A DNA stretch of 64,000 nt from the IMG/VR virus record IMGVR_UViG_3300043423_000073, positions 1 through 64,000 of that record. The stretch is one strand, 5' to 3'. The DNA is from a virus. Taxonomy: Duplodnaviria; Caudoviricetes. A program made the translations under genes and the position numbers. Positions 28,584 through 44,027 of the stretch are shown piece after piece (within the stretch, counting starts at the first letter, position 1; each line of letters starts with the position of its first letter). Below the pieces are notes generated by a model. The model made no database searches. It was not told the DNA's origin and saw only the letters and a list, made by a program, of their open reading frames with translations.

Positions 28584-28886
28584 TTAACCTGCGCTTTTCA
28601 ATAAAGACGCCAAGTTTGCAATCTGTTTTCTATTTGCGCCTGATAAGCTGACTGTTTTGCCTAAAAGGCTGGAGAATAAATGCTCCAGCAGTGACGCCGC
28701 CATCCTAGGTTTGCTTAGCTGCACTGACTGTACTAGTTCTGGGCGCTCGCGCTGCGCAAGCCGGACAAACTTGGGCAGGTCTTTTGTCCAGGAGCCGCCA
28801 CCAGTAAACATGCCTCTGTAAATGCTAAGAACAACCGAGGGCTCGGCGGCTGTTACCTGAAGACGATTTGCTGCCTGGAGTTGCCT
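28584..28886 (-). pseudogene. leader-tagged ORF whose ATG is replaced by AGG
   Basis: AAGGAAACCAAA-AGG CAA CTC CAG GCA GCA AAT CGT CTT CAG GTA ACA GCC = (R)QLQAANRLQVTAA, in frame with ORF 28584-28811. Confidence 0.65.
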
Positions 28887-28916
28887 TTTGGTTTCCTTTG
28901 GGTTTGTGGCCTGAGT

Positions 28917-29402
28917 TTAGCGAACTACCCCGAAGCCGTTCTTCTCGTAGTTATCGATTGCTCGACTGACGTACGCTACGTACTTTGCCAGGTCAAACTT
29001 GCGGGGACTGAACTCATACAGCGGGGTGTGTGCGGTAGACAGCAGGAGCCCGATGTGGCTGTAATCTTCCCCGTATGAGCCGAGCGTAAACTCAATACCC
29101 ACAACCTCGTCGTCTACATCCCACGTCACACCGCCCTCGGCTATCTTACGCGCCTCATTGAAGATGAGTTTAGTCTTGCCTTTGGTAACCTTGGCTTTGT
29201 CCTTCATAGACGCTGTGAAGCCTTTGGAGATTTCTTTGAGCGCCTCCGCCATTTCCTGCTTTGCTGCGTTGTACTCTCCTTGATAAACCAGTTCGTCTGC
29301 ATTACTTATGCGCACACCTGCCTTGAGCAAGGCGTCGCGGAAGGCTTTTGCGTCGCCTTTAGCCGCTGTTACTTGAAGACGGGTTGCTGCTTGAAGTTTC
29401 AT
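28917..29402 (-). CDS. leader-tagged protein, 160-aa paralog family member 1
   Basis: MKLQAATRLQVTAAKGDAKAF...FDLAKY. Confidence 0.85.
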   Translation of the reverse strand: MKLQAATRLQVTAAKGDAKAFRDALLKAGVRISNADELVYQGEYNAAKQEMAEALKEISKGFTASMKDKAKVTKGKTKLIFNEARKIAEGGVTWDVDDEVVGIEFTLGSYGEDYSHIGLLLSTAHTPLYEFSPRKFDLAKYVAYVSRAIDNYEKNGFGVVR

Positions 29403-29437
29403 TTTGGTTTCCTTTGGGTTAGGGCCACGACTGCCTG

Positions 29438-29920
29438 TCAGGCAAGGCCTTTTGCCTCAAACTCATTGACAGCCTTGTTAACAAAGGCTTGGTACTTGGC
29501 TAAGTCAAACGCGCCAAGTTCAAACTTGTATTCCGTGTACAAAGATGAACCAAGATCGAGCCAAACGCGGCCCTTATCGTGGAGTTCACCAAAGTAGAAC
29601 TCGCAAGAAACGTGTTTCCTGTTGGGGCCTTCCGCGATCTGCCACTCAACACCTCCGTAAAGGTACCGCTCTTTATCGAGACTGTTTATTTCTATCTCGC
29701 TGTCTGAAGAGGCCTTATTCCGCATCGACCTTTTGAGGCCCTTGTCAACAACCGTAAGAACAGATTTCATCAAGGTTTTGGCCTGCTTGACCTTTTTGTC
29801 GACTACCAACTGCTGGGCTTGTTCGATCTGCTTTGATACAGCGAGCAAAGCCTCGCGGAAGGCTTTTGCATCACCCGTAGCCGCAGTTACTTGAAGACGG
29901 GTTGCTGCTTGGAGTTTCAT
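29438..29920 (-). CDS. leader-tagged protein, paralog family member 2
   Basis: MKLQAATRLQVTAATGDAKAF...FVNKAVNEFEAKGLA. Confidence 0.85.
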   Translation of the reverse strand: MKLQAATRLQVTAATGDAKAFREALLAVSKQIEQAQQLVVDKKVKQAKTLMKSVLTVVDKGLKRSMRNKASSDSEIEINSLDKERYLYGGVEWQIAEGPNRKHVSCEFYFGELHDKGRVWLDLGSSLYTEYKFELGAFDLAKYQAFVNKAVNEFEAKGLA

Positions 29921-29935
29921 TTTGATTTCCTTGGG

Positions 29936-30133
29936 TTAAATATGAGGGTGACGCAAGAAGCCCGAACCTGGAAACTTCTTGACATACCTCTTCTTTGCAC
30001 TTTCCTCAAGCTTGGTAAACCACTCTTGAGTTCGTGCGGCTTCACAAACTGTTGATGCGGTGGTGGCTTTGTGTTTGCCACCACAGGCCCCGCATACTGT
30101 TGAACTGAGGCGCGTTGCGGCGTTAAGCTTCAT
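29936..30133 (-). CDS. leader-tagged 65-aa protein
   Basis: Internal start MKLNAATRLSST; CGACG; WF..L.....RY...FPGS. Confidence 0.7.
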   Translation of the reverse strand: MKLNAATRLSSTVCGACGGKHKATTASTVCEAARTQEWFTKLEESAKKRYVKKFPGSGFLRHPHI

Positions 30134-30356
30134 TTTCCACCTCGTCAAAGGCCGCCATCCACTTCTTGTAGGCGGGCGTGCCCAGAAATGCCTTGATGGC
30201 CTTACGGTACGCCCACAGCTTGTCCCTCGCTTCCGCCCCGGAGAACTTTGCGAGGAACGCGTCATGAAAGTCCTCAGGAGGGTCCTGGGTGAAGTCCAGC
30301 TTGCTCAAGTTGACCTTGGCAGTTACTTGAAGACGAGTTGCTGCTTGGAGTTTCAT
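30123..30356 (-). CDS. leader-tagged 77-aa protein
   Basis: Start MKLQAATRLQVTAK after the RBS cassette. Confidence 0.8.
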   Translation of the reverse strand: MKLQAATRLQVTAKVNLSKLDFTQDPPEDFHDAFLAKFSGAEARDKLWAYRKAIKAFLGTPAYKKWMAAFDEVENEA

Positions 30357-30375
30357 TTGGTTTTCCTGCGGAAGG

Positions 30376-30723
30376 TTAGAACTTGTAGCTTTCTGTGGGC
30401 TGCGCGTCCTTGGAGCTAGCGTAGTAGTGTACCCACGCGCCTTTGGCAGCTTGAGCAAGCTTCTTTAGGTCGATAGCCGCAAGCCCTTTGCCAGAAAGTG
30501 TCCAACCTAAACCCGAAGTGTACACCGCCTTCAGCGCACCTTTAGGGGTAGAGAATACGAATTTGTCACGCGCAAGCCTAGAGGACGAACCCCCAGACTG
30601 TTTGTAATCCTCCTCCTGCACGCCTGGAAGCGACCTTAGGTAGTCCGCGAGCGGCCAGTTCTTTTCTAAGGAAGCCTCTGGCGCGGCAGTTAATTGGAGA
30701 CGTGCTGCTGCTTGAAGTTTCAT
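30376..30723 (-). CDS. leader-tagged 115-aa protein
   Basis: MKLQAAARLQLTAA. Confidence 0.8.
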   Translation of the reverse strand: MKLQAAARLQLTAAPEASLEKNWPLADYLRSLPGVQEEDYKQSGGSSSRLARDKFVFSTPKGALKAVYTSGLGWTLSGKGLAAIDLKKLAQAAKGAWVHYYASSKDAQPTESYKF

Positions 30724-30759
30724 TTTGGTTTTCCTTTGGGTTTCAACTGCAAGCTAGGC

Positions 30760-31008
30760 TCATCGGCCACCAAAGCCTGAGCCGTGCCGTGTGTTTTCGC
30801 CTCGTGTATTAGAACGGCGAGAGCTGCTTGGGCGTTTACCTGGGTTTGCAGCTTTCCACTGCTGCACCTTTTGCTTTTCTTTTGTTGAAAGCTGCTCCGG
30901 CTCTACCACAGTACCGTCGTCCCACTCCCACCGACCGCGTTTGTCGTTGAACTTGAGACCTGACGTCAGCTCTGTTGCGGTGAGACGGGTTGCTGCTTGA
31001 AGTTTCAT
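30760..31008 (-). CDS. leader-tagged basic 82-aa protein
   Basis: MKLQAATRLTAT; Arg/Ser/Gly-rich tail. Confidence 0.8.
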   Translation of the reverse strand: MKLQAATRLTATELTSGLKFNDKRGRWEWDDGTVVEPEQLSTKEKQKVQQWKAANPGKRPSSSRRSNTRGENTRHGSGFGGR

Positions 31009-31054
31009 TTTGGTTTTCCTTTTGGGTTAAATAGGTGGGCGAGTGAGCCTGGCT

Positions 31055-31789
31055 TTAGGCCAGTGTGCCTTGGTTGATCTGCTGAATGACCTGCTGCAGG
31101 TAGTCAGGCGCGTAGCTGTAGAGCCGCTTGTAATAGGCAATGGCGCTCTGCTTCTCGGCAGGAGTTAGCGAGGCGACCACCGCTGCCTGCACACTCTTTT
31201 TCACGTCCACTGGGTAGATGCTCACCACTTGTTCATATGCAACTTCCATGGCGTGGCCACGGGCAACGGAAAGCACGCGAACCTTGCTGTCGCTAGTTGC
31301 GAGTGCAAAGCCGTGATCGATGCTGCCATCATCGCCCACGTAGGCAACCAGCTCGTTGGCTGCGGCTTTGGCAATGGTGACGTTAGCAACGCGCGGCACG
31401 TCGTTGCGATGGTATGTGGCAGCTTGCACCAACTCAGACAGGTCCTCTTCGCCGCGGCGAACCAAGTAGGTACCCGCCGCACCACTGCGCACATCCCACA
31501 AAGTTTTGTCTTCCTCGGACATGAGGACGTTCTTGGCCATAACGCGGTAGCTGGCTTTCAGACTCTTAGGGTCAGGCATGACCACCTGCTTGTTGGCTTT
31601 CACAAAGCCTACGGCCACGCCTGCGCTAATCTTCTTGAACGAGTTGGCAACAGGGGCGGCCAAACCTTTTAGCTTGGCAGCAACGTGGTTGCGGAAGTCC
31701 TCGTGGTCAATGTCGCCGGTGAAGGACACGATGACTTTGGCCAAGCTGGGGGTAACCATTTTGTGGTCGGTAATGTTCAACGTTTTCAT
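31055..31789 (-). CDS. conserved virion/head protein
   Basis: Start MKTLNITD with RBS AAGGA; contains LKAS, VQAA and VVAS motifs. Confidence 0.65.
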   Translation of the reverse strand: MKTLNITDHKMVTPSLAKVIVSFTGDIDHEDFRNHVAAKLKGLAAPVANSFKKISAGVAVGFVKANKQVVMPDPKSLKASYRVMAKNVLMSEEDKTLWDVRSGAAGTYLVRRGEEDLSELVQAATYHRNDVPRVANVTIAKAAANELVAYVGDDGSIDHGFALATSDSKVRVLSVARGHAMEVAYEQVVSIYPVDVKKSVQAAVVASLTPAEKQSAIAYYKRLYSYAPDYLQQVIQQINQGTLA

Positions 31790-31913
31790 TTCATTTCCTT
31801 GGGTTGCGACACTTGATAGTGAGGAAGTTGCCCTATCCATTTAGGATTCGGGTTGGGTGTTACCGCAAAAAAGAGCAGGGGTGTATCTGCTAAGCCCACA
31901 CCAATGGGAAAAC

Positions 31914-32195
31914 TTACTCGGGGCTGAATTCTTTGATCTCAATCTTAAGAGCGTTGCCTACAACGTAGAACTCAGCGCTGAGATCGAACTGCGTACAAAC
32001 CCGGCCCAACATGACAAAGCCTTCATCCGTCACTGACATTCGGCCAGTCTTCGGTACCAAACCGACCACTGAGCCTTCGCCGTTTTCGTCAAATTTTGCC
32101 TTGACAACGGTGCAGAAGCTCCGGAGGATAGTGACTGCCTTTGCGGCCCATGCTGGGTTGGAGGCGACCAGTCGGCTTGCAGCAGAGATTTTCAT
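31914..32195 (-). CDS. leader-tagged 93-aa protein
   Basis: MKISAASRLVAS. Confidence 0.75.
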   Translation of the reverse strand: MKISAASRLVASNPAWAAKAVTILRSFCTVVKAKFDENGEGSVVGLVPKTGRMSVTDEGFVMLGRVCTQFDLSAEFYVVGNALKIEIKEFSPE

Positions 32196-32250
32196 TCTGG
32201 TTTCCTTGTTAGTTTGCAGTTGTTGGTTTGGGGTTTGGTTAATCAGACGG

Positions 32251-32766
32251 TTAATAGCTCACGCCATCGTCGAGAAAGTCAAAGGACAAGGTTGCAGAGA
32301 TTTCAACCCCAGCGCTTTCTGCACCGTTAAAGTCGACGTTCGCGATCTCCTCTAACCAGCAACCGTTGATCACGATGGTCTTGGTCGTGTTGCCTTGATT
32401 GTCGTAAAGGTCGAGCTCGGCGTTAACCTTGTACTCAGCGCTGTCTGCGCCGGTGTTGTTCTTCCATGACCGCGTGCGGTCCCGCCATTGACGCAGCTTG
32501 GTGTAGGAGTCGAAGCCGACCGTCTCCATAAGCATAAACGTGAAGGTGTGATCGTACTGGGCACGACCGGCTTCACGCTTTTTCACACCGTGCAGCTCAA
32601 TGTCGATGCCTTCGATCTTTGAGCCAGGCAAGCTCGTGGTCTTGCAACGAACAGTCAGCGTCTGGCTGTCATTGGCGCCCGGAATGAAGGGAAAGATCAA
32701 ATCGAAGTTCCAGGTCTGCGCGGCATCAGGAAGTGCCATAACCTGTGAGTGGGATGTTCGTGCCAT
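32251..32766 (-). CDS. tail tube protein (T4 gp19-like)
   Basis: CKTTSLPG...G...Y.HTF...E...W...YK...L.LYD..G...GCW...ATLSFD; downstream of sheath. Confidence 0.85.
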   Translation of the reverse strand: MARTSHSQVMALPDAAQTWNFDLIFPFIPGANDSQTLTVRCKTTSLPGSKIEGIDIELHGVKKREAGRAQYDHTFTFMLMETVGFDSYTKLRQWRDRTRSWKNNTGADSAEYKVNAELDLYDNQGNTTKTIVINGCWLEEIANVDFNGAESAGVEISATLSFDFLDDGVSY

Positions 32767-32769
32767 CGG

Positions 32770-33096
32770 TTAGTCCTCTAGGAGAAGGTTAAAGATTTTG
32801 CTTTCTGGGTCTTCGTCGTTTGTGAAGACGCGGAATGTCTCCTCATAGACGATGCCCAAAGGCGAGAGATGGTTAATGGTGACGTTGGTGCCCTTAACCT
32901 GAGACTCCTTTACCGTTGCTAGCGCGTCAAGAATCTGTTGCTGGGTAACCTTGTCCTCTGTGCGGAAGAAAAAGTTATTGCCTGTTTGTTTCAGAAAGCG
33001 TGCACCAAGAGGTCGAAGCAGCTTGGCCAGCGTTTGTTGGAGTATGAACAGGTTTCGGTCAGCGGCGGCCAGCCGTGTTGCTGCTTGAAGCTTCAT
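32770..33096 (-). CDS. leader-tagged 108-aa protein
   Basis: Internal start MKLQAATRLAAA. Confidence 0.75.
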   Translation of the reverse strand: MKLQAATRLAAADRNLFILQQTLAKLLRPLGARFLKQTGNNFFFRTEDKVTQQQILDALATVKESQVKGTNVTINHLSPLGIVYEETFRVFTNDEDPESKIFNLLLED

Positions 33097-33115
33097 TTTG
33101 ATTGGCCTTGTTAGG

Positions 33116-33595
33116 TTAAGCAAAGCCGCGCTTCTCAAACTCATTGACAGCCTTGTTTACGAAGGCCGCGTACTTGGCAGGGTTAAAGTTACCAAGACCA
33201 AACTCGTAGTAATCAATCTCGCGCTTGGGGGAGAGGTTGAGCCAAACAACACCGACGAATCGCGACTCTTCGCCAAAGTTGAACTCGAAAGACGCCCGGT
33301 AGGGTGCCTCCTCTGGTCCTGCCTCAACCGACCACACACAGCCGCCCAGCTCTTGGTTGAGGTTTATGCTGCTGCGCTTCACCTTGGCTTTACCATCAAG
33401 CGCCGCCTTGAAGCCTTTGTCGACTTCCTGGAGAACCGCTTTCATAAGAGACTTGGACTCCTTGCCGTTGCCGAAGTGGGCACGATCGGAAGCTTCCCCA
33501 ATCTGCTTGCCCACTGAAAGCAAGGCCTCACGAAAGGCTTTTGCGTCGCCTTTAGCCGCTGTTACTTGAAGACGTGTTGCTGCTTGAAGTTTCAT
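33116..33595 (-). CDS. leader-tagged protein, paralog family member 3
   Basis: MKLQAATRLQVTAAKGDAKAF...FVNKAVNEFEKRGFA. Confidence 0.85.
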   Translation of the reverse strand: MKLQAATRLQVTAAKGDAKAFREALLSVGKQIGEASDRAHFGNGKESKSLMKAVLQEVDKGFKAALDGKAKVKRSSINLNQELGGCVWSVEAGPEEAPYRASFEFNFGEESRFVGVVWLNLSPKREIDYYEFGLGNFNPAKYAAFVNKAVNEFEKRGFA

Positions 33596-33622
33596 TTTGG
33601 TTTTCCTTGTTGCCTGTTTTGC

Positions 33623-33632
33623 ATAAAATTAG
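33623..33632 (-). promoter_or_regulatory. putative late promoter core CTAATTTTAT
   Basis: 27 nt upstream of ATG 33595. Confidence 0.65.
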
Positions 33633-33701
33633 CGGTACTGCCTATTTGACAATGCCTACGGCTGCTGTGAAAGAGCGCCCGTTGGTAGCCAAAGTCCGCA
33701 C

Positions 33702-36086
33702 CTACCGTTGTTCCTGTGCCGTGTTCTCTATAAAATTACGGACCCACTTTGTCTTGCCTAGCGATTTAACCGCCCTTAACCCTAACTCTTCTATCAACTG
33801 TTTTTCTGTGCACTCGTCTGGGTTTACGGCTAGGCCAAACTTTTTGATCAACTCCGCCTTGCTAAACGCCTGCTTTGGTTGCCTATAAGGCCCACCGAAC
33901 CAGGCGTAGTAATCAACTGAATTTCTACGGAGCTCGCAGAAGCCAAGCTCTTGATACATGCCTCCTGTGAAGACGGTATTGTCTGCATAGGATGAGACCG
34001 ACTTGGGACTTGCTGCTCTCACAAATGCCGCCAGCAGCCTTGACGCGCCGCCTACCACAGAGCAGCTAGTCGCATAGCGGGTCAGCTCGTACACACCGGC
34101 CTGTCTTTTGCTTCCTCTGCTGCTGACTGTGTGGTTAAACGTCATGGCCGCCACAACCTTGCCATTGTGTCGCAAGCAGTAGGCGGTGCCTCCTCGTGGG
34201 GCGCCTTGTATGTGCACGGCGTTAAAAAACTTTTTGAGCTTAGACGCAGGCGCGACCACAATCTCGCACTGCCGAGCGTACACCCTCTTGCTGACCAACC
34301 CGACTAAATGTTCACAAAAGCGCCTAGCTGCCTGGGCATGAAGACGTACAACGTCCTCGTGCAGAAAAACGAGTCGATATCCTGCTGCTTCGGCCTTTGC
34401 CTTTTGGCGGGCCATCTCTTGTGAGTCTGACCAAAAGTGCGGTACAAAGGTTACTGCGATTTTCTTGTCAGGCACATACACTGTTTGGCGCTTTATTCTT
34501 TCGGCGCCTAGCCAGGCAGCAATTTGCCTCACGTACTTTGCGCAGTAATCCGCCTTGCCGATATCCGTGTAATACTGATGCCACACAAGAGCTTCTGGGT
34601 TTGGATGGGTATGCCAGTCGTCAGGTAGAAACACACAGCTACCTGCAGGCATTACCACCGCCCAACGTACCTTTAATCCACTCTCATCTGCCTGCCTAGC
34701 CTTTTCACGATTCCTGGCCACAGCATTAGGCATAAGCAGCGTCCAGGTAGATTTACACTCGACGAAGCCTTGTCTGGGAATGTAAAAATCAGGCGTCCAG
34801 CTCATACGTTTCGCCTTGTCGCGCGGATAGCGCTCGTCGAATTGCGTGCGGACTGTCTTGTGCCTTTTCAAAAGCTCGCGCAACAAGACGACCTCGCTGT
34901 TACCCTGCACCGTGTAGCCTTTGCCGTTTACCTTAACTTCTTTTCTGGCAAAGCTTGACTTTAAACCTTTGAGCGCTTGCAGAGGATTCTTGTTGGGCTG
35001 CTCAAATCCGTATTTTTGCAACCAGGTGGCCTTGCACTTTGCCATAATCTCTGGGTTTGAAGTCGCGACCTCATGTCCGTAGACACGAAGATTAGTGTTA
35101 CGGATTTTCTCGCGTAACAGCGGGCTGCCCAGGCCAAAGCCGCCATATCTAAACAGGTTTGTTTCGACCATCTTTGCTCGCACCTCCGGGCGCTTCATAG
35201 GATGGTCCACGCCATACTGCTCTGTGTGGCGTCTTTTACGGTTTTCCACTGCCTCAGGGTTTTGCATGTTATGCGCATACCCTGTTTTCTTCTTATAGGT
35301 AGCTGCCGCGCGCTTAACCACCTCTTTTAGCTGCCTCGGACTAGCAACACCGTAGCGTTCCTTATGCGTCTTCTTTCTCTCGCTTACCACTGAGGCAACG
35401 TCCTCTGCCGACTTGTTGCGCCAGGCTTTTGTGATTTTGTTCTTCACCTTGGCAGACTGTGTGGCCCAATCGCTGCCGTAGAGCGCACGATTTGTTTTTA
35501 TTCGCTTGCCCCGAACTGCGGCCACGTCAACCTTGCTCCACGCGGCACTAACTTTTGCTCTCACCTTAGCCGACGCCATTGGGCTAGACCCGCCATAGCG
35601 CTTTACATTGGTCAGCTTTCTTTTCTCGTATACCGCTGCAACCTCGTCAGCAGACTTTTCACTCCATGTCTGCTTGGACTTTTCTGTGCGTAGCTGCCAA
35701 CGGAGCCTTTTACCCGCTTCTGTTGGTAAGCAGTTCTTGCAGATGCAACATAAGACTGCGGTTGGGGTTTTACATAAAAGGCAGGGCCTGTCCATGGCCG
35801 CTACAAGACGTGGCGTGTTGATGCCTAGGCTGTGACGCATCTCATAGACAAACCTACGCCACAGCCTAGCCCGTTTGCCAAGCTGTGCCCAGAACTCCTG
35901 TGCGCCACACTTTCTGGCAGGGTACTGAGCGTAAAGCGACCTAATTGCCGTCTTGTCTTCGTCGGTCAGCCGACAGGGCTTAATCTTTGACTCTACTGAT
36001 GCTGGGTAGTTTGAAGGGTCGAAGTGTTTGCTTGGTTGGCTTAGTCGGCTTGGTTGGTTAAGTTGGTTAAGTTGACCAGCGTTCAT
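33702..36086 (-). CDS. free-standing Hef-like homing endonuclease (KTxxxRYG repeats + PD-(D/E)XK + degenerate Vsr-like + GNAT/Mom-like C-domain)
   Basis: About 8 T...(R/K)YG...S..V..K repeats; WTPDFY...VECKS; VYARQC...HIQG...ELTRYA...VVGGASRLL...SYAD. Confidence 0.75.
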   Translation of the reverse strand: MNAGQLNQLNQPSRLSQPSKHFDPSNYPASVESKIKPCRLTDEDKTAIRSLYAQYPARKCGAQEFWAQLGKRARLWRRFVYEMRHSLGINTPRLVAAMDRPCLLCKTPTAVLCCICKNCLPTEAGKRLRWQLRTEKSKQTWSEKSADEVAAVYEKRKLTNVKRYGGSSPMASAKVRAKVSAAWSKVDVAAVRGKRIKTNRALYGSDWATQSAKVKNKITKAWRNKSAEDVASVVSERKKTHKERYGVASPRQLKEVVKRAAATYKKKTGYAHNMQNPEAVENRKRRHTEQYGVDHPMKRPEVRAKMVETNLFRYGGFGLGSPLLREKIRNTNLRVYGHEVATSNPEIMAKCKATWLQKYGFEQPNKNPLQALKGLKSSFARKEVKVNGKGYTVQGNSEVVLLRELLKRHKTVRTQFDERYPRDKAKRMSWTPDFYIPRQGFVECKSTWTLLMPNAVARNREKARQADESGLKVRWAVVMPAGSCVFLPDDWHTHPNPEALVWHQYYTDIGKADYCAKYVRQIAAWLGAERIKRQTVYVPDKKIAVTFVPHFWSDSQEMARQKAKAEAAGYRLVFLHEDVVRLHAQAARRFCEHLVGLVSKRVYARQCEIVVAPASKLKKFFNAVHIQGAPRGGTAYCLRHNGKVVAAMTFNHTVSSRGSKRQAGVYELTRYATSCSVVGGASRLLAAFVRAASPKSVSSYADNTVFTGGMYQELGFCELRRNSVDYYAWFGGPYRQPKQAFSKAELIKKFGLAVNPDECTEKQLIEELGLRAVKSLGKTKWVRNFIENTAQEQR

Positions 36087-36110
36087 TGGTTTCTTCCGTG
36101 AAAAGAGGAA

Positions 36111-36175
36111 GGTCCACTGTGGCGTGTGCTGTTCACGGCAACACACAGGACGGCCATCCTATACCACAGTGGACC
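36111..36175 (-). promoter_or_regulatory. branched RNA structure (12-bp closing stem with two inner hairpins) between sheath and endonuclease
   Basis: GGTCCACTGTGG...CCACAGTGGACC enclosing GTGTG..CACAC and AGGA..TCCT. Confidence 0.55.
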
Positions 36176-36217: not shown

Positions 36218-38128
36218 TTATTGACCGGTGACCTGGCTCAATGCCTCTTTGAAGGACACGCCCGCCTTGGACACAACAACCTGCAACTGGATTTCATGAA
36301 TCGGAACCTGTGGGATCAAGATAACCGTTACCACCAATATGCCCGCATTACGTGTTGCTGCTGTATTGTTGCGGTCGTCGATAACCACGTCAAAGTCGTA
36401 GAGGCCAGAGCTGTTCTTCACGCTCTGCAGGTAGCTTGTGATGGAGTTACGCAAGCTGCGGCGAACAGCTTCCGTGTTCATCTCCTGCAGTGCATACATC
36501 AGAAACTTCTGTGTGCTGACCTTGATGACGTTGATGATACGGCGTACAGACAACCAGGACAGCGCCGACTGCTGGGCTGTCAGCGTCTGCTGCTCCCACA
36601 GTGCAATGCCCTGACCCACAAAGGTTCGTGTGTAGTTCACATTGGCTTTGTAGAGGTAGTCGGACATGCCCTCGTCGTAGGTATGACGAGCTTTGAGCAC
36701 ATTGAGCAAACCGCGGTTCAAGCCGGCTGGGCTGAAAGCAGGGTTAGCCACGCGGTCAGTGCGAGCACACAAGGCTGCGGCCCAGCCCGAAGGTGGTGCA
36801 TAGACCTGCCTGCCGTTAACCAGATCAGCCTGCAAAAGATCAGGGCAGAACAGTGCGCTGTAAGAGCTGTTGAGGTTCAATGACAAGTTTCGGTAGTCAA
36901 CTGCCGCCTGGAACTGTTGCATCGTCGACGGCACGTCAAGCAAGGCAACACAATCGCCACGACGCTGGGCCAAACTGTCCATGGCAAGCTGCACGATGGG
37001 GTCTGCAATACCTGCGTTCACAATCATGTTGATTTCGTACAACTGCTTGTCTTTGAAGACGTCGAGGGCAGCGGCCACGTCGTACGAGGTAGGAGCCGTG
37101 CCGGAGTTACCGCCAGTGAACTTTACCGCGGTGCTGTTGCTGATAGTGGGCACAGATGGCAGCGAGGACACATTGTTGCGCACACGCAGGTAACCGCTGA
37201 ACGGATTGATCTGGTCTTCCAATTCCATTTGGACGCCAGTTGCGCCGACCTTGGGAGTCAAAGTGGAAGTCCACTCTTCGGCCACCTCGCCGGTTTCTGC
37301 ACGAAGGCGCACAGTGAACTCTTCGTTGATGGAAGCGAGTAACGGATCGGTGATGGGGAGCACTGCGGTGTCTGGAGTGACCGCGCCAGTGTCGACGAAG
37401 GTTGTAACCCCTCCGCCCAGAACCGCGATACGCCCGTAAGCTTCGCCAGTGATACGCCCGTAGACTTCGTAGCCAACTGCACCAACAACGGGGTTCCAGG
37501 CAAGCGTGTTCTTGCCGCCGTTTATACCTGTTACAGGTACTTCGAGTGAACCTAAACTCTTGCCGTTGCTGCCCAAAGCTGCCACCTGATACGCATAGGT
37601 CTCTAACTCCAGCACACCGCCCTCCTCAGACGGCGTGACGGTTAGTTCGGTTGGTGCGTAGACGTTATTGGAAACGATTTCCAAAGAACGGTCTTTGCCG
37701 TAGGATCCTGGGCCTTGGCGCAGATAGAACAATGCGATGGCCGACTCGCCTGCATCTGCGAGACTGTCAATGTCAACTGTGTCTGGGCTGGCTAGACCCA
37801 TAGGGCGCAGCAGCTGCGTAGAATCGGTGGACACGAGCAACAGGCTGGCCGTCAAGTGATCTGAGCCTAACACACGGAAGAACCAGCCTGAGTTGCCTTC
37901 GGTAAAAAAGTTCAAGGCGGACTGAATTGTCATAGAGACGGTTGGGTCAGGATCACCGTACTCACGGATGAAGGAGTCGGCTTCCGTAAAGAACATTGGT
38001 TCAGCCGAGCCTTGTCTGGTCACCACAGGCATCAACACAACAGAGGACGACGAGGAGGTGATGACCTGAGACAGGTTAATCTCTTGGGCGCGGACGTCGC
38101 TCGAACGACGGACGATTTGGGTTGTCAT
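36218..38128 (-). CDS. tail sheath protein
   Basis: F...YGDP; R.DC.ALLD; PPSG..A...ARTD...SPAGLNRG; WEQ.TL; L.VRR. Confidence 0.92.
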   Translation of the reverse strand: MTTQIVRRSSDVRAQEINLSQVITSSSSSVVLMPVVTRQGSAEPMFFTEADSFIREYGDPDPTVSMTIQSALNFFTEGNSGWFFRVLGSDHLTASLLLVSTDSTQLLRPMGLASPDTVDIDSLADAGESAIALFYLRQGPGSYGKDRSLEIVSNNVYAPTELTVTPSEEGGVLELETYAYQVAALGSNGKSLGSLEVPVTGINGGKNTLAWNPVVGAVGYEVYGRITGEAYGRIAVLGGGVTTFVDTGAVTPDTAVLPITDPLLASINEEFTVRLRAETGEVAEEWTSTLTPKVGATGVQMELEDQINPFSGYLRVRNNVSSLPSVPTISNSTAVKFTGGNSGTAPTSYDVAAALDVFKDKQLYEINMIVNAGIADPIVQLAMDSLAQRRGDCVALLDVPSTMQQFQAAVDYRNLSLNLNSSYSALFCPDLLQADLVNGRQVYAPPSGWAAALCARTDRVANPAFSPAGLNRGLLNVLKARHTYDEGMSDYLYKANVNYTRTFVGQGIALWEQQTLTAQQSALSWLSVRRIINVIKVSTQKFLMYALQEMNTEAVRRSLRNSITSYLQSVKNSSGLYDFDVVIDDRNNTAATRNAGILVVTVILIPQVPIHEIQLQVVVSKAGVSFKEALSQVTGQ

Positions 38129-38400
38129 AGGTTCTTCTCCTTAGCGTTGTTTTGAATGTCGACAGTCTTTGTCGGGGTCTTTGGCAGGACGGCAGGTGCC
38201 GGTGTTTTCTGAACGAGAGCCGCAGGCTTGTCGGGGTGGACTTTGACCACACCGGGATTCAGCGCCAGCCAGTTACTGTCAACGGTCGCGCCTTCAGGCA
38301 AGTCCACAGTACGCTTGGCGGCCACATGCACATAGTTCACGCCTCGGGGTTCAATGATGCGGATAGCTAATGCCATCGTGCCTTGATTGGTGACTTTCAT
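38125..38400 (-). CDS. small structural protein
   Basis: ATGA-coupled to sheath. Confidence 0.6.
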   Translation of the reverse strand: MKVTNQGTMALAIRIIEPRGVNYVHVAAKRTVDLPEGATVDSNWLALNPGVVKVHPDKPAALVQKTPAPAVLPKTPTKTVDIQNNAKEKNL

Positions 38401-38414
38401 TTGAGTTCCTTTGT

Positions 38415-39065
38415 TTAAAATGGAGTGAACGTCGCGCCGCTGAGATACTCTTCTGGGTGCTCGTCGGTCAGGATAAGCGTGTTAATACGTCCGCGCTTAC
38501 CCAGGTCAGGTTCGGAAGTGTATCCGTGTATAACACCGCTTGCGCTGGGCTTATAAACTGCCTCAGTGTCTGACGGGTTTTCTTTCTTCGGTGTGCTAAC
38601 CTGCTCCGTCAAAACATAGCTGACCGCAACATTGGTCAGCCCATAGTTGATAGAGAAGTTAGCTGCTCCGTTGCGGCGTGTAAAGAGCCACCTACGGGCA
38701 AAGGCCATAACCGAGTCTTTGTTGTCGCTGAATTGAGCGCTATGAAAGACTAGGTTGAACTCGAATTTGGTTGGGTACAGACGCGCCATCATGTACTGAT
38801 TGTTGTCTGTGCTTAGGGTAACAGGTATGCCTTCGCGGATCATGCGCTGAGACACATAAGGGCTCTCAGGGTCAGAGCTAACACCCGTTATCTCAACAAA
38901 CGCATAGGGGTAGGTCGGCGCGGCGTTACCTTGCAGAATAGCCAGTTGCTTTAGCTCATCAATGCCTGTGGTAATAATGACGGGACAACTTAACTGCTCT
39001 GACATTTTGCGCTGAAAGCCCTCAAGGATGAGACCTTCGATTGGGGGTATTGCCACGTTTGCCAT
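38415..39065 (-). CDS. putative tail completion/neck protein
   Basis: Position between capsid and sheath; YPYAFV motif. Confidence 0.5.
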   Translation of the reverse strand: MANVAIPPIEGLILEGFQRKMSEQLSCPVIITTGIDELKQLAILQGNAAPTYPYAFVEITGVSSDPESPYVSQRMIREGIPVTLSTDNNQYMMARLYPTKFEFNLVFHSAQFSDNKDSVMAFARRWLFTRRNGAANFSINYGLTNVAVSYVLTEQVSTPKKENPSDTEAVYKPSASGVIHGYTSEPDLGKRGRINTLILTDEHPEEYLSGATFTPF

Positions 39066-39076
39066 GCCCTAGTCCC

Positions 39077-39086
39077 ATAAAATTAG
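39077..39086 (-). promoter_or_regulatory. putative late promoter core CTAATTTTAT
   Basis: 11 nt upstream of ATG 39065. Confidence 0.65.
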
Positions 39087-39098
39087 AGGAGGAAAACA

Positions 39099-39127
39099 AA
39101 AAAAGGGAGGCAGTGCCTCCCTTTTTC
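39099..39127 (-). terminator. intrinsic terminator after the capsid operon
   Basis: AAAAAGGGAGGCA-G-TGCCTCCCTTTTT hairpin with T-tract. Confidence 0.7.
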
Positions 39128-39140
39128 TACGTGCGCAAGA

Positions 39141-39542
39141 TCAACGACCGCGACGGCGTGTCATGCTGCGCAACACGGAGGCCATGGTTTCTGCGGGAGC
39201 GTCTTCGCCCATGCCGTCATCCATGCCGTCATCCATGTCCACATCGTCCATGTCGGAGGCCAGTTCCATGTCCTCGTCCATGCCTTCATCCATGTCGTCC
39301 GAGCTGGTCAGTTCGTCAAACAGCTGCTCGTCATTCGCTTTCAGGCGACGCTTCGAGGCACCCAGCTTGCGCTGAGCGGCATGGGCGTGGGCATTGGAAG
39401 CTTCCAAGACCTGAATGGCGGCAACGACGTCCGATTCGCCAATGGCTTTTGCGAACAGTTTGGCGGCCAAAGTGGTGTTGCCTTTGCGGCCAGCGTTCAA
39501 TGCCAGAGCCACGTGGTCAAGAGTGCGAGAGTATGTACGCAT
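39141..39542 (-). CDS. acidic head/core protein
   Basis: Follows the MCP; Asp/Met-rich; LEAS, KLGAS and RLKAN motifs. Confidence 0.65.
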   Translation of the reverse strand: MRTYSRTLDHVALALNAGRKGNTTLAAKLFAKAIGESDVVAAIQVLEASNAHAHAAQRKLGASKRRLKANDEQLFDELTSSDDMDEGMDEDMELASDMDDVDMDDGMDDGMGEDAPAETMASVLRSMTRRRGR

Positions 39543-39600
39543 TTTGATTTCCTTGAGAATTGATGATGGGACTAAGAGCCCCTAGGGGCCCTTAGCGTAT

Positions 39601-40656
39601 TTAGACGCGCTGGCCTTTGGCGACAGAACGGCTGTTGGCAACGGACACGGCCAAGCTTTCCTCGATCACGAAACCGCGACCTGGGACCAACTCGTGGCTA
39701 ATGTCGATCGGTGTCGACTTCAGGCCACCGCGGTCGGAGTACGCGCCGTGGTTCAGTGCGTCAGAGATGACGTAGAACTCACCTGCGCCCAACACCTTGT
39801 GCTCTGGGTGACGGAAGGCATCAGAAGTGATGGTCATGCCGTACATGGTGGCCAGCTCGCCGGTCAACAACAACTCGTGGCGGGCAACTGGATCAATCGC
39901 CTGATAGAAGTCGCTGTTGCCGATGATGTCTTGCCACATATCGGAAGCCATCAACAAGTGAGCACCTTTCAGGCCCCACGCGGTGACCTTGCCCACCACA
40001 GTCATCAAACTGTAAGGGGTCAATTGGCCAGACACAACGGTCAGAGGGTTGTCCACACCAACCAAGGCGTTCACCTGGTTGTACCACACGCGGTCTTCTG
40101 CAACCATAGTTGCTTCAACACCTTCAATGAACTTTTCCTGCAACACGTCGCCGCTGGATTGGTTCAGTTCGTTGGTGGGCACGAATGGGCGAGCCACAAC
40201 CTGGAACTCAGGAGGAGTGAAGTACTTGTCACGGATGAGCTGCGACTGGATCTTGGTTGGGGAAGTGCTCCACACGGCAGTCACGTTCTTGGTACGCAAC
40301 TGGAAGCGAGGGACACTGCCTTGGGCCACGTCGATCTTGGCCAGGTACTTGCGCATGAAACCTTGACGGTTTGCGGTAATGTACAAGGCGTCGGAAATCT
40401 TCTCACCCAAGACACGGTGTGCGTCCTTGTCGTTGAAGGCGGCAGCCACCAGCTCGCGGCCAGTAGTTGCGTCAACGTTCAACATCACGCCTTGCGAGGA
40501 GGCCTGCAAGAAACGCTGTTGCTGAGTGAGCAGGTCTTTCTTGCTCGATGCGTTCAGTTCGCCATTACGGCCAACCAAAGACGAGCCGTCGACGGCTTTC
40601 AGGTCATGGGCGAGAACTGGTGCTTTGCCAGCACGAAGCATGATTGCTTTGGTCAT
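39601..40656 (-). CDS. major capsid protein
   Basis: 351 aa; protease-scaffold-X-MCP gene order; HK97-like pattern (..EDR.WY.., TGEL..MYG..I..D); highly biased codon usage; followed by a hairpin. Confidence 0.75.
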   Translation of the reverse strand: MTKAIMLRAGKAPVLAHDLKAVDGSSLVGRNGELNASSKKDLLTQQQRFLQASSQGVMLNVDATTGRELVAAAFNDKDAHRVLGEKISDALYITANRQGFMRKYLAKIDVAQGSVPRFQLRTKNVTAVWSTSPTKIQSQLIRDKYFTPPEFQVVARPFVPTNELNQSSGDVLQEKFIEGVEATMVAEDRVWYNQVNALVGVDNPLTVVSGQLTPYSLMTVVGKVTAWGLKGAHLLMASDMWQDIIGNSDFYQAIDPVARHELLLTGELATMYGMTITSDAFRHPEHKVLGAGEFYVISDALNHGAYSDRGGLKSTPIDISHELVPGRGFVIEESLAVSVANSRSVAKGQRV

Positions 40657-40668
40657 CTGTTTCTCCTA

Positions 40669-41346
40669 TTAGGCGGCAGTGAAGGAGATGCCCAAGAAAG
40701 GCACTTCCTGCGAAGGCAGAGCAACAACGTAGCCGTCAATTGCTGCACCGGTGCCGGCTTGGTTTGTGATCTGGCCGTTGGCGGCCAACTTGATTGCGGT
40801 TGCTGCGGACCAGTCAACTGCGGCGTTGAACTCCGAGGTGTAGATGATGCCGCGCTTGGCAACACCGATCTGGCTCAGGTAATCACCGACGTAGCCACCT
40901 GGCTGCACGTCACCTTGAATGTTGCGAGCTTGCAAGGCAGTCAAGGCGTAGCGGTAGGTGACCGACACTTCGTGCGTTGCGGTCAACCCAGTGACTTCAC
41001 CGCTGGCGTTCACACTGGGGGTAGCCACTGCAGCGCCGGTGGTCTTGTTGAACACAAAAACCTGGCCGGTGATGGGAACAAAGTTCAAGCGAACCTTGCC
41101 GCTGGAGGGGACAACAAAGTCCTCAACCTTAGCAGCGTAGTCTGCGCCGAACGGCGCGGCGGAGGTACCGGCCAAGGAAAAGCCGACAAAGATTTCCGAA
41201 CCGTTGGCCGCCATGGAGGGCATAACACCTTCATGAACAGCACCAGGTGCGCGCACAAGCGCCAAACCTTCGGCGCGGATCAGAGCGCCGGGGGCCTGAA
41301 CGGCTTCACCAGAGTCCTGGATTTTCGAGAGAGGCAAGTAAAGCAT
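40669..41346 (-). CDS. capsid-associated (decoration/minor capsid) protein
   Basis: Immediately upstream of MCP; G..V..P....FLG C-terminus. Confidence 0.6.
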   Translation of the reverse strand: MLYLPLSKIQDSGEAVQAPGALIRAEGLALVRAPGAVHEGVMPSMAANGSEIFVGFSLAGTSAAPFGADYAAKVEDFVVPSSGKVRLNFVPITGQVFVFNKTTGAAVATPSVNASGEVTGLTATHEVSVTYRYALTALQARNIQGDVQPGGYVGDYLSQIGVAKRGIIYTSEFNAAVDWSAATAIKLAANGQITNQAGTGAAIDGYVVALPSQEVPFLGISFTAA

Positions 41347-41355
41347 AGTTGCTCC

Positions 41356-42681
41356 TTAGATTAACGATTGGCTACCTGCCAGAATTGCTCGTGCAACGCT
41401 CGCAGGGGAACCATCTTGGGTTTTCGACTGCAGCAAGACTGCGCGTCGGGCGGGATTTGTGAGGGCAGCCGTGACCGAGGTCGTTGCCGACAAAGGCACA
41501 AGCTCATCTTCGTTTTCGTCAAACTCAGCGTCGACGTCAGTCAACCCATCGTCCAACTCAACTTCTTCTGAAACCATGTCGAGTGCCGACACGTAACCGT
41601 CACGGGCTTCTTCCGACATAGCGGCAAGGCGCTGAGCCAGAGTAACCATAGAGCGGCTGTAGTCAACACCGTGCTTTGCAAAGATCGATGTGACCAAACG
41701 ATCTGCATTGCGGAAGCCTGCGTGAGACAACTCGTTAACCAAGGCTGCTTTCAGGGGGTTCTGCACACCCTTGAAATAGTTGGTGTTGATACCAACTGCG
41801 GCGATAGCCAAAGATTGTTCAAGCGCTGCCTGCTGCTGCTTAGACGCGGTAAGGTGTTTCGCAGTCGCGGCCTGCACTTTTGATGCGACCAACTTTGCGG
41901 TAACCTTAGCGGCTTTCAGCTTCACGCGGGACAATTGCAAACCTGCTTGCAGGAGGCCTTTGCGGAGACCGGACTGCTCAACGTTTGCAACAATAGCGTC
42001 GTGGAACACTTGTTGTTGGTAAATGTCGGAAGCATTTGCTTTGCGTGCTGCGGCAGGGCCCATCGAGGCAATGATGCGGTTCGAACGAATCACGTGCAGA
42101 GCGTTGGCGCTGCAAGCAAAGTTCAACTCCTCACCGTCGACGTCGTCAGGCACTTCGTCCACGTCAACCAACGCGAGAGTTTCTTCCAGCGAGGTGTCTT
42201 CAAAGTCGGCCGCGTCGTCGTTGGCCTCAAGCTCAGCGTCGTCGTCGCTGTCTTCCAGTTCAGGCAGTTCCTCGGCGGTCAGTGCTTCAAACTCATCGCC
42301 TGTATCCAACACGTCGGTGTCAGTTGCAATGTCGTCCGAGAACTCGTCAAACTCGTCTTCGTCTGCGCCCGCCAAGGTAGGCACGTCGATGACAGGCATA
42401 CCGTCTTCGGTGTCCAGGTAGTTTTCACCTGGGTTCAAGTCGCCGTGTGTACGCAATGGGCCGTCCATTTCTTCGTCCACTACTAGCGAGTTTGCTGCAA
42501 CACGCTTGGGGCCTTTGTATTTCAAATCGTTGGTGGAGTGCGTGTAGCCGCTAGTTCGATCTTGTGGATCGATCAGCAGGTCCGCGCTCTGCAGATTCAA
42601 AAGACGTTGGTCCGAGCGCAGTGCGCGCTGGTCGGGAGTGTCACCCGAGTGCAGCGCGGAGCCTGCTAAAATCTTCGGCAT
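41356..42681 (-). CDS. prohead scaffold/core protein
   Basis: Very acidic central tract, helical, between protease and capsid genes. Confidence 0.6.
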   Translation of the reverse strand: MPKILAGSALHSGDTPDQRALRSDQRLLNLQSADLLIDPQDRTSGYTHSTNDLKYKGPKRVAANSLVVDEEMDGPLRTHGDLNPGENYLDTEDGMPVIDVPTLAGADEDEFDEFSDDIATDTDVLDTGDEFEALTAEELPELEDSDDDAELEANDDAADFEDTSLEETLALVDVDEVPDDVDGEELNFACSANALHVIRSNRIIASMGPAAARKANASDIYQQQVFHDAIVANVEQSGLRKGLLQAGLQLSRVKLKAAKVTAKLVASKVQAATAKHLTASKQQQAALEQSLAIAAVGINTNYFKGVQNPLKAALVNELSHAGFRNADRLVTSIFAKHGVDYSRSMVTLAQRLAAMSEEARDGYVSALDMVSEEVELDDGLTDVDAEFDENEDELVPLSATTSVTAALTNPARRAVLLQSKTQDGSPASVARAILAGSQSLI

Positions 42682-42757
42682 AGTCTTCTCCTATTTGATA
42701 AACAAGGCGTAGGCTAAAGGAACCTAAAACGCCTCACGGGTGAGTTTTACCTCTACC

Positions 42758-42767
42758 ATAAAATTAG
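42758..42767 (-). promoter_or_regulatory. putative late promoter core CTAATTTTAT
   Basis: Upstream of the scaffold-capsid operon. Confidence 0.65.
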
Positions 42768-42797
42768 GGTGGTTTGATTTCCTAATCTTTCTGGTTT

Positions 42798-43265
42798 TCA
42801 GGCAAGGCCTTTTGCCTCGAAAGTGTCGATTGCCTTGTTGACAAAGGACTTGTACTTTGCCTGGTTGAACTTGCTGGCGCGGAACTCGTACGTCGTATTG
42901 AACCTGCCGAAGACTAAGGTGACGAAGCCAAGAGCGTCACCGGGCGTAAATTCAAACTCAAACGCAGCGTAAGAACCAGTCGTGTACCAGGTCACTTCAC
43001 CTGCAGACTGCTCGTGCGCCCGGTTGAACCCAAGATACGACTCCTTTTCAAACTCGACCTTACCCGTCATAGCTGCCGCGAAGCCAGCCTCGATTTCTTT
43101 GAGCGCCGCCGCCATTTCCTGCTTTGCGGCTTTGTACTCTCCCTTATAAACTTGCGCATCGGCATTACTTATGCGCACACCTGCTTTGAGCAAAGCCTCG
43201 CGGAAGGCTTTTGCATCGCCTTTGGCTGCGTTCAACTGAAGACGGGTTGCTGCTTGGAGTTTCAT
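42798..43265 (-). CDS. leader-tagged protein, paralog family member 4
   Basis: MKLQAATRLQLNAAKGDAKAF...FEAKGLA. Confidence 0.85.
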   Translation of the reverse strand: MKLQAATRLQLNAAKGDAKAFREALLKAGVRISNADAQVYKGEYKAAKQEMAAALKEIEAGFAAAMTGKVEFEKESYLGFNRAHEQSAGEVTWYTTGSYAAFEFEFTPGDALGFVTLVFGRFNTTYEFRASKFNQAKYKSFVNKAIDTFEAKGLA

Positions 43266-43283
43266 TTTGGTTTTTCCTTTGGT

Positions 43284-44027
43284 TTAACTTTGGAGGATAA
43301 CATCGCTTAGACAGGTTGTCCAAGCGGGCGTTTCTACGATGCTGTACTCTATCGGAGACAGACCGTAGGCATTCAGGTAAGCAAGTCGTGTCTTTCCCTC
43401 GTACTCGACAAACTTCCAATTCACCGACTTGGTGCTATGGATATGGCTGCAGTTGAGATTAGGATTGTCCGTAGACTCGTGGCCGCAGACAGAGCATCGA
43501 AAGAAGTCGGCAAGGCAGCCCATAGAGCCTGTGTTGATTTTCCTGTCCATTACCTTTTGGGCAAGCTCAGGGTCTTTGGTCTTCGACACTCCGATCAGTC
43601 CGTAAACTGCCCAGTGATTGCCGTCACCAAAGCCCTGAATACGACGAAACGACGTATCGAAGATAACGCCTTTGGCTTTCAACGGGTCTTCGTTGTCGTG
43701 CTCCTCATGCACAGGGCAACCCGCCCAGGCTTTGAAAACCTGTCGGTTCATAGGCGGTGGGCCAAACTTGACCAGCTCCTCTGTGGGGAAGCCGATGCCG
43801 TTCCTGTTAGGCAGGTTAGACGGACAGATCATGTGGTTAGTCACCACGTAGTCTTCAATTTGTCCTGGCAGGTTGTATGCCTTGGACGCAAAAGGCAGCC
43901 ATGACAGATCAAGCTTACCTGCAACGGCAACTTCTTTCTCCAAGTCCATCGGCTTGTCAAGCGTTGCCGACGACACCATTGGCGCCGTGCGAAGGACTTT
44001 TCTTTGATAGGCGGCAGGTACTCTCAT
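43284..44027 (-). CDS. prohead (capsid maturation) protease
   Basis: PNRNG..F; PVHEEHDN; GSMGC...CSVCG...C.H; IEYSIVETPA motifs. Confidence 0.75.
   Translation of the reverse strand: MRVPAAYQRKVLRTAPMVSSATLDKPMDLEKEVAVAGKLDLSWLPFASKAYNLPGQIEDYVVTNHMICPSNLPNRNGIGFPTEELVKFGPPPMNRQVFKAWAGCPVHEEHDNEDPLKAKGVIFDTSFRRIQGFGDGNHWAVYGLIGVSKTKDPELAQKVMDRKINTGSMGCLADFFRCSVCGHESTDNPNLNCSHIHSTKSVNWKFVEYEGKTRLAYLNAYGLSPIEYSIVETPAWTTCLSDVILQS

Follow-up and report, generated by a model that had tools for sequence, protein, structure and literature searches.

Repeated blocks of ribosome-binding site and coding leader as probable recombination substrates among small late genes of a phiRSL1-like jumbo phage

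The concept of short repeated sequences as exchange points for small phage genes has already been described for T4-type phages, in 1994 and in 2010 (PMC2839356). T4 encodes the internal proteins (IPs) IPI-III, known in more than 30 further variants, which bear a capsid targeting sequence (CTS) and are encoded at two hypervariable loci (PMC3012670). Conserved sequences flanking each IP gene are thought to mediate shuffling (Repoila 1994, as reported in PMC2839356). T4-type phages also contain promoter-early stem-loop (PeSL) cassettes, composed of a sigma-70-like promoter and a stem-loop terminator, for which mini-circles have been described (PMC2839356, PMC4122927). In the Dar system of phage P1, DarB has an N-terminal packaging signal (PMC9024508). 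Giant phages of the phiKZ/SPN3US type possess propeptide-bearing ejection and inner-body proteins that are processed by the prohead protease (PMC7411985, PMC5694885). The DNA analysed here is a window of 64,000 nucleotides (positions 1 to 64,000 of the IMG/VR record IMGVR_UViG_3300043423_000073) from a giant phage in which about ten small late genes are headed by a repeated block, consisting of a ribosome-binding site (RBS) and an N-terminal leader of 13-14 residues.

The block is about 60 nt long, extends from approximately -17 to +42 relative to the start codon and is present in 8 near-intact copies. Calculated per position over nine copies, conservation stays high between about -17 and +33 and fades by +42. 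The 20-nt core of the leader was found at 8 sites with three or fewer mismatches, compared with 0.01 expected from shuffled sequences, which confirms that the repeated RBS-and-leader cassette of ~50 bp described in the original prediction is real. An independent repeat search yielded two families, one with 10 copies (45 nt) and one with 7 (59 nt). All copies, together with their genes, are on the minus strand, and the positions given for them are the first bases of the start codons read on that strand. Each of the nine ORF starts listed in the original prediction indeed carries the repeat; the one at 28886 is decayed, and two additional diverged copies, at 30133 and 32195, had escaped notice, giving a total of 10-11. 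Leaders that are alike only at the peptide level, and represent older copies, were found at 50463, 54743, 55409, 56465, 58528 and possibly 61329. Neither promoter-like sites (1 versus 2.5 expected) nor terminator-like sites (8 versus 9.2 expected) were enriched.

Four copies are located outside the tandem array. The copy at 43224-43285 (start codon at 43265) heads a 155-residue cargo of paralogue family A (42798-43265), directly downstream of the gene for the head maturation protease (43284-44027, minus strand; phrog_18299, E 6e-66), the presumed enzyme that processes the leaders. Another family A cargo of 159 residues (33116-33595) follows the copy at 33554-33615 (start codon at 33595). The copy at 33055-33116 (start codon at 33096) has a diverged RBS and precedes a 108-residue cargo (32770-33096), whose orthologue in the related contig L113, which derives from SRR29699982, is 77% identical. 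A diverged leader, MKISAASRL, at 32154-32215 (start codon at 32195) begins a cargo of 93 residues (31914-32195).

The remaining copies form a head-to-tail array at the end of the late operon, as had been proposed, with seven units rather than six (31008, 30723, 30356, 30133, 29920, 29402 and 28886). The array is placed between the conserved phrog_17573 gene (31055-31789, minus strand), whose RBS has the same AACCCAAGGAAA block, and the convergent DnaB module. The phrog_17573 gene is the last of the late operon in phiRSL1, BCSR5 and Motura, which have no leader gene at the spot of the array. The first unit (30967-31028) heads an 82-residue cargo with a basic tail (30760-31008), the second (30682-30743) a 115-residue cargo for which no relatives were found (30376-30723), and the third (30315-30376) a 77-residue cargo (30123-30356). 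The unit at 30092-30153 has the diverged leader MKLNAATRL, is devoid of the RBS block and overlaps the 3' end of the preceding gene; its cargo is 65 residues long (29936-30133). Two family A cargos of 160 (29438-29920) and 161 residues (28917-29402) follow the units at 29879-29940 and 29361-29422, respectively. The terminal copy (28845-28906) contains AGG instead of ATG at 28886 and five other substitutions, and is a decayed leader with a dead start rather than an intact ORF start. It is followed by a terminator-like hairpin (28834-28847). Beyond this, at the meeting point of the late operon and the convergent genes, two perfect 23-bp arms of an inverted repeat enclose a 6-nt loop (28521-28572), likely a bidirectional terminator.

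As a peptide signal, the leader is old and shared across the clade of phiRSL1-like jumbo phages. Relatives were retrieved from viral contigs with a capsid-protein alignment as the query, and about 80 of them plus the window provided 76 distinct leader-bearing N-termini with the consensus M-K-[LI]-[EQ]-A-[AK]-x-R-L; the shared detachable N-terminal leader sequence is MKLQAATRLQVTAA. In these phages the leader genes occupy the head/tail module, close to the prohead protease. The cargos are mutually unrelated except for family A and one other family. Among relatives, cargo at the leader slots turns over completely. Leaders of different lineages have only runs of 8-18 nt in common. Independently, the contig L116 has three adjacent genes with near-identical 42-nt leaders. 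The tail-tube protein as a single query retrieved no relatives among viral contigs, and the exact leader DNA pattern gave 0 matches there; its 26 metagenome matches were all due to chance, for the leader does not continue in them. A megablast search of the 14.9-kb region against a phage collection and a tblastn search of one paralogue returned no match. Word-based protein searches with family A and the 115-residue cargo recovered the window's own copies only, and a profile search detected seven distant family A members, each with the leader. Nothing was found for the cargos in Pfam or PHROGs, and no convincing fold match for family A in the ESM Atlas or by Foldseek against PDB and BFVD. The possibility that the unrelated cargos are frameshifted family A remnants was rejected, there being no signal in any frame.

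Codon choice in the leader differs from what the peptide alone would impose. Where residues are identical, the core copies share the codon in 70% of cases, compared with 31% predicted by codon usage, so the DNA copies appear to be young or homogenised; the original reading of conserved synonymous sites as a mark of recent copying is supported. Same-codon use is 66% among copies with unrelated cargos, 38% among the old copies of the window and 29-50% in relatives, most of which keep the peptide with freely different codons and upstream DNA. The shared codons (AAA, CAA, GCA, CGT and GTA) are non-preferred ones. Between unrelated cargos, identity falls from ~90% to random at roughly +40. Together, these comparisons support a more recent origin of the DNA copies than selection on the peptide would account for. 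The untranslated part is conserved as well, and is largely the generic strong RBS of the phage, a genome-wide consensus also present upstream of the non-leader genes at 39542, 38400, 31789, 10488 and 21630.

Comparison with close relatives revealed gain or loss of cassettes at the leader. The window differs from L113 by one 499-bp cassette, that of the 33595 copy, which is missing in L113; there, the DNA upstream of the 33595 copy is fused to the gene body of 33096, and the switch point falls within the leader, at about +6 to +27. The contigs L034 and L035 are 99.6% identical; a single cassette of 374 bp sets them apart, and its junction falls within the opening codons of the leader. Leader-to-leader junctions account for these two of the five gain/loss events examined, whereas three break elsewhere (an LRR-type cassette in L113, an endonuclease-linked insert in L058 and a leader stub in L114). 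An extra cassette of L113 has RBS-and-leader DNA that is 94% identical over 47 nt, compared with 78-83% in the rest of the contig. The paralogues have a mosaic structure, with identity of 88-100% over short tracts: the 29402 leader is 98% identical to the 33595 leader while the body of the 29402 gene matches 43265 at 83-90% over nucleotides 42-180, and otherwise diverged paralogues hold isolated 21-33-nt tracts of 94-100% identity. A RecA-family gene is encoded in the contig. The proposal that recombination between the repeats inserts and excises cargo agrees with the two indels and the mosaics but not with the majority of the events. The alignments support crossing-over inside the leader as the probable way in which whole cassettes have been added or removed.

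Several features connect the leader to the phage head. The head maturation protease gene adjoins leader genes. One leader protein (57626-58528) contains a DarA_C domain (40.2 bits versus a cut-off of 27) and matches phrog_1926, annotated as 'released from the phage upon host infection'. An AF2 model has residues 1-14 disordered, followed by a confident fold (pLDDT 82.6). The N-termini of the major capsid proteins end, clade-wide, in a similar small-small-E/D motif (A-[ST]-E). By analogy with the CTS of T4, the leader is most likely a putative capsid-targeting propeptide; no publication was found that deals with N-terminal processing or the virion proteome in phiRSL1-like phages. Like the T4 IPs, the leader proteins combine a short conserved N-terminal signal with otherwise unrelated small proteins, their genes are clustered in hypervariable loci, and the cargos may, by the same analogy, be injected counter-defence proteins. 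Unlike the IPs, they belong to the phiRSL1-like lineage, and the repeated DNA is the RBS and coding leader rather than an early promoter with a stem-loop. The leader peptide is not known to resemble the T4 CTS. The P1 Dar system shares the N-terminal signal into the head (putative here) and, through one leader protein, the DarA_C domain; it differs in having few large proteins that are loaded stepwise, with neither a repeated DNA cassette nor an array. The phiKZ/SPN3US-like phages are also giant phages with many head-internal proteins, though of a different group, and we know of no report of a shared DNA-level leader cassette in them.

Could selection have kept the copies alike with no recent copying at all? 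Peptide-level selection plus a common RBS would explain the clade-wide conservation of the peptide, but it is contradicted by the excess of shared, non-preferred codons and by the recurrence of the 20-nt core far beyond chance, and is hardly credible. Selection on the RNA would have the block act as an unstructured A/C-rich translation enhancer or as an operator for a shared translational regulator. Folding around the start codon is weaker than in most shuffles in 4 of the 6 copies tested (z +1.0 to +1.8; near zero in the other two, at -0.35 and -0.58), G is avoided at the third positions of codons 2-12, the RBS block is common to non-leader genes, and other lineages, too, have similar DNA in the first 4-5 codons (AAA CTY SAA GCN). 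Selection on translation initiation may be responsible for these shared codons and for the conserved RBS. However, the old copies in the same genome and most leaders of the relatives encode the peptide with other codons; avoidance of G leaves 3-4 codons at Ala, Arg and Val, yet one dominates. Nor would such selection produce mosaic paralogues and cassette indels, and an Rfam search matched no family. We thus consider RNA-level selection in place of recent copying unlikely.

A different doubt concerns what the leader does, which would leave the recombination reading unaffected. The leader could, for instance, be a signal for degradation or a tag for tail or baseplate assembly, and many leader genes are placed among tail genes (sheath and tube). 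Against such a role, the slot directly after the protease holds a leader gene in the window, phiRSL1, BCSR5 and the contig L117, one leader protein has the DarA_C domain, and the first acidic residue past position 9 falls at 13-17 in 48 of the 76 leaders, similar to the motif ending the capsid protein N-terminus; a function outside the head seems improbable. The original prediction went further in likening the locus to an integron lacking an integrase, a dedicated system that captures foreign cargo and supplies it with RBS and packaging tag. There are points of likeness: direct repeats line up in tandem at the operon end, the ORFs are small, unrelated and equally oriented, each with a repeated boundary element, indels do occur at leader junctions, cargo turnover at the slots is complete, and the extra cassette of L113 stands out by the high identity of its RBS and leader. 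IntI and attC hairpins are absent, however, from the contig, which is ~65% complete. In its 154.7 kb the only match to the tyrosine recombinase profile PF00589 scored 20.3 bits (cut-off 27.1) and belongs to a type IB topoisomerase, and no attC-like inverted repeat recurs at the cassette ends. The repeat sits at the 5' end, inside the gene, and recombination would be homologous, not site-specific. Homologous exchange moves only genes already bearing the leader, so a naive gene stays untagged, the short runs shared between lineages would make cross-lineage exchange inefficient, and most events examined break away from leader-leader junctions. We give integron-like capture little credence. Another parallel is PeSL, where short repeats likewise bracket non-essential ORFs in a hyperplastic region, close relatives differ by indels with junctions in the repeat, and an integron-like logic operates through general recombination with no need of an integrase; the present repeat differs in having no sigma-70 promoter or terminator, in its unstructured RNA and in overlapping coding sequence.

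Our verdict is that the leaders mediate unequal crossing-over and gene conversion at a hypervariable locus, analogous to the T4 IP loci and PeSL cassettes. The repeat covers the translation-initiation region and the opening 13-14 codons of the genes for a set of small late proteins. The leader would send these proteins into the prohead and then be cut off by the prohead protease; the proteins would be counterparts of the T4 IPs, located inside the head and probably injected. In the present phage, tandem duplication together with unequal crossing-over and gene conversion of short tracts between leaders would recently have expanded the leader set and homogenised it at the DNA level. The ~60-bp direct repeats would then be both product and substrate of the phage's general homologous recombination, with gain or loss of whole leader-to-leader cassettes as the visible outcome. 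Other cargo would arrive by promoter-bearing or homing-endonuclease-linked inserts, and the element would not be a dedicated capture device. Taken as a whole, this account of an old leader signal, recently expanded and homogenised and serving as a recombination substrate, is the best explanation and a reasonably probable one. A bolder extension, which we hold to be speculative and rather doubtful, gives the leader a dual use: the peptide would be the ticket into the capsid and the next host, and the DNA a portable crossover site, through which co-infecting phiRSL1-like jumbo phages swap, amplify or drop injected counter-defence effectors as tagged cassettes by general recombination, while homogenisation within each genome keeps the cassettes compatible.

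At the DNA level, the locus is a concrete example, from outside the T4 family, of genes gained and lost by crossing-over in coding leaders, with leaders that evolve in concert within a genome; the advance is in breadth and in a new type of repeat, not in principle. The clade comprises environmental jumbo phages and jumbo phages of plant pathogens, related to phiRSL1, BcepSauron and Motura. If the leader is a head-targeting tag, these phages would have a large and fast-turning-over set of packaged proteins, which would be natural candidates for injected anti-defence factors, and the leader itself would offer an existing tag with which foreign proteins could be loaded into the capsids of the clade.

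The repeat of about 50 bp claimed in the original prediction was confirmed. Its leader core gave 8 matching sites against 0.01 expected by chance, and a de novo repeat search without prior information recovered the same family, with 10 copies at a length of 45 nt and 7 at 59 nt. Per-position comparison of nine aligned copies revealed a block conserved from about -17 to +33 of the start codon, fading by +42. Eight of the predicted ORF starts carry intact copies (43265, 33595, 33096, 31008, 30723, 30356, 29920 and 29402, minus strand), but the ninth, at 28886 (minus), is a decayed terminal leader with AGG for ATG and further substitutions, followed by a terminator-like hairpin. Two more copies, at 30133 and 32195 (minus), are diverged, those at gene starts 50463, 54743, 55409, 56465 and 58528 are alike at the peptide level only, and no further copies were found elsewhere in the 154.7-kb contig. 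All genes of the leader set lie on the minus strand. The junction of the late operon with the convergent genes holds an exact tandem repeat of 20 nt (28451-28490) and a perfect 23-bp hairpin (28521-28572).

The single virus contig of 154.7 kb, whose first 64 kb form the window, has 53% G+C. The major capsid protein (39601-40656, minus) is 58-66% identical to its homologues in Ralstonia phage phiRSL1, Burkholderia phages BcepSauron, BcepSaruman and BCSR5, and Achromobacter phage Motura, with which the window is syntenic. The shared order runs from helicase, two small genes and head maturation protease through scaffold-like protein, structural protein, capsid protein, sheath and tube to a phrog_17573 protein and a convergent DnaB replication module. 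Leader genes are confined to a small number of places: behind the protease, between the sheath and tube genes, behind the tube, and where the operon ends.

Searching viral contigs with a capsid-protein alignment yielded 80 related loci, and Logan, ENA and NCBI assemblies supplied additional relatives. The leader M-K-[LI]-[EQ]-A-[AK]-x-R-L was present on 76 distinct N-termini (viral-contig loci, two extended contig stretches, the close relative L113 and the window), with the first acidic residue after position 9 falling at positions 13-17 in 48 of them. The cargo proteins behind it mostly show no kinship to one another. In the AlphaFold model of the paralogue family A (four members), residues 1-14 are disordered and a confident fold follows (pLDDT 82.6), predicted as two helices, five strands and a final helix. 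Capsid protein N-termini of the clade end in a small-small-acidic motif resembling that of the leaders; in the capsid genes of loci L031-L110 they form a stretch of about 17-20 residues, basic and rich in alanine, that closes with A-[ST]-E, where the window capsid protein has L-A-H-D. This suggests that the clade stretch is a short propeptide with a protease site like the putative one after the leaders. A 300-aa protein encoded at 57626-58528 (minus) begins with the diverged leader MRLNAVARL, contains a DarA_C domain (PF18789, 40.2 bits, above the Pfam cut-off), and matches phrog_1926, annotated 'released from the phage upon host infection', making it a candidate injected anti-restriction component. 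The adjacent protease, the disordered residues 1-14, the capsid N-terminal motif and the DarA_C/phrog_1926 match together suggest that the leader is probably a capsid-targeting propeptide, as described for the internal proteins of T4 (PMC3012670) and for DarB of P1 (PMC9024508). Our literature search found no proteomic data for the phiRSL1-like clade. A 540-aa type IB topoisomerase (59707-61329, minus; PF01028, 72.8 bits) has a leader-like KISASRLAN after five N-terminal residues and may therefore be packaged.

Conservation of the leaders extends to the DNA. The share of identical residues encoded by the same codon is 70% among the 8 core window copies and 66% among one paralogue and four unrelated cargos, compared with 31% expected from codon usage, 38% in the window's old leader copies, and 29%, 49% and 50% in the relatives G001, G006 and G007, respectively. 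Codon bias is mild genome-wide, and the leaders consistently use the non-preferred codons AAA, CAA, GCA, CGT and GTA. Genes for unrelated window cargos are about 90% identical over the leader and no more alike than random directly past it; in G006 and G007 likeness is confined to the first four or five codons and the Shine-Dalgarno core, and the remainder drifts. The same-codon excess and the identity drop indicate that the window copies are young or homogenised, in line with the predicted recent copying beyond protein-level selection. Conservation of the untranslated half (AAGGAAA, 1-2 bases, CAAA, ATG) among the copies also held, but this half is the phage's general strong ribosome-binding site (RBS), because the AAGGAAA...CAAA-ATG-AAA context recurs at non-leader gene starts 39542, 38400, 31789, 10488 and 21630. 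G is avoided at third positions of codons 2-12, and four of six tested copies fold more weakly as RNA than most shuffles, so translation initiation is probably under some selection.

Two comparisons place exchange within the leader itself. The 2.5-kb contig L113, 78-83% identical to the window in nucleotides, encodes a 108-aa protein orthologous to that of 33096 (77% identity). It joins DNA homologous to that upstream of window 33595 to the body of 33096, with the switch point somewhere from about +6 to +27 in the leader, so that window and L113 differ by exactly one leader-to-leader unit (499 bp). The loci L034 and L035, whose two flanks are 99.6% and 97.9% identical, also differ by exactly one such unit (374 bp), with the junction in the first codons and divergence locally higher within the leader. 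Paralogues share short tracts of 94-100% identity inside genes otherwise 40-60% identical; the 29402 gene has a leader 98% identical to that of 33595 and a body (nt 42-180) 83-90% identical to 43265. Three adjacent genes on L116, a 207.8-kb NCBI metagenome-assembly contig, have near-identical 42-nt leaders, one with an unrelated cargo, and represent an independent case of leader homogenisation. The three differ in their RBS regions, and L116:7759-9780 holds five tandem leader genes near the operon end. A RecA-family gene on the window's own contig also speaks for recombination.

The prediction that crossing-over between repeats adds or removes cargo, with breakpoints inside the repeat, thus holds for these two events but not for three others. 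An extra 708-bp unit in L113 (1311-2018) lies in intergenic DNA between the homologues of 32195 and phrog_17573; it consists of a promoter-like TGTATAAT, the same RBS and leader DNA, and a 193-aa cargo with LRR-like repeats (LTSLEGAPKTVG). Relative to L052, L058 has a 1588-bp insert comprising a smaller homing endonuclease (L058:15512-16654) and a leader gene, with a 7-nt microhomology at the join. After the protease, the relative L114 (1140-1200) retains a solitary stub of RBS, five leader codons and a stop codon in the position of window gene 42798-43265. In the window, the sheath gene and the leader genes flank a large gene for a homing endonuclease (phrog_3339; 33702-36146, minus), a homologue of which occupies the same place in L042. 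The events lacking a leader-leader junction weigh against leader repeats as an integron-like device for taking up foreign cargo. A naive gene cannot gain a leader through homologous exchange, the identical stretches common to leaders from different lineages are all short, and no attC-like inverted repeats were found at the cassettes. No tyrosine recombinase reached the Pfam cut-off in the 154.7-kb contig, which is about 65% complete (CheckV), the lone weak match sitting in the type IB topoisomerase. We therefore regard the proposed likeness to an integron without an integrase as improbable.

Cargo content does vary between relatives, as predicted. G006, the closest larger relative (capsid protein 79% identical), likewise carries about six leader genes in the interval from its phrog_17573 homologue to DnaB, none related to the window cargos, and this operon-end slot is free of leader genes in phiRSL1, BCSR5 and Motura. 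Family A is old: profile searching brought up seven distant members from other phages, each bearing the leader; one occupies the slot behind the protease in L117, and two lie close to the end of the operon in L116. The window holds four copies over three slots (43265, 33595, 29920 and 29402).

In T4-type phages, repeated regulatory cassettes (PeSL), with PeSL-like elements at two internal-protein loci, allow small ORFs to be inserted, deleted or replaced by general recombination, and Krisch and colleagues explicitly compared them to integrons without integrases (PMC2839356; PMC4122927). The logic of repeat-mediated gene exchange is the same here, but the phage lineage differs, the repeat consists of an RBS and a coding leader, and the leader in the window phage and its relatives shows clear concerted evolution within genomes. 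The repeat itself is established, and its first interpretation is partly supported. On balance we favour, with some reserve, a set of leader-tagged and probably head-internal proteins that has lately expanded and been homogenised, and in which the common start region would serve as a crossover point.
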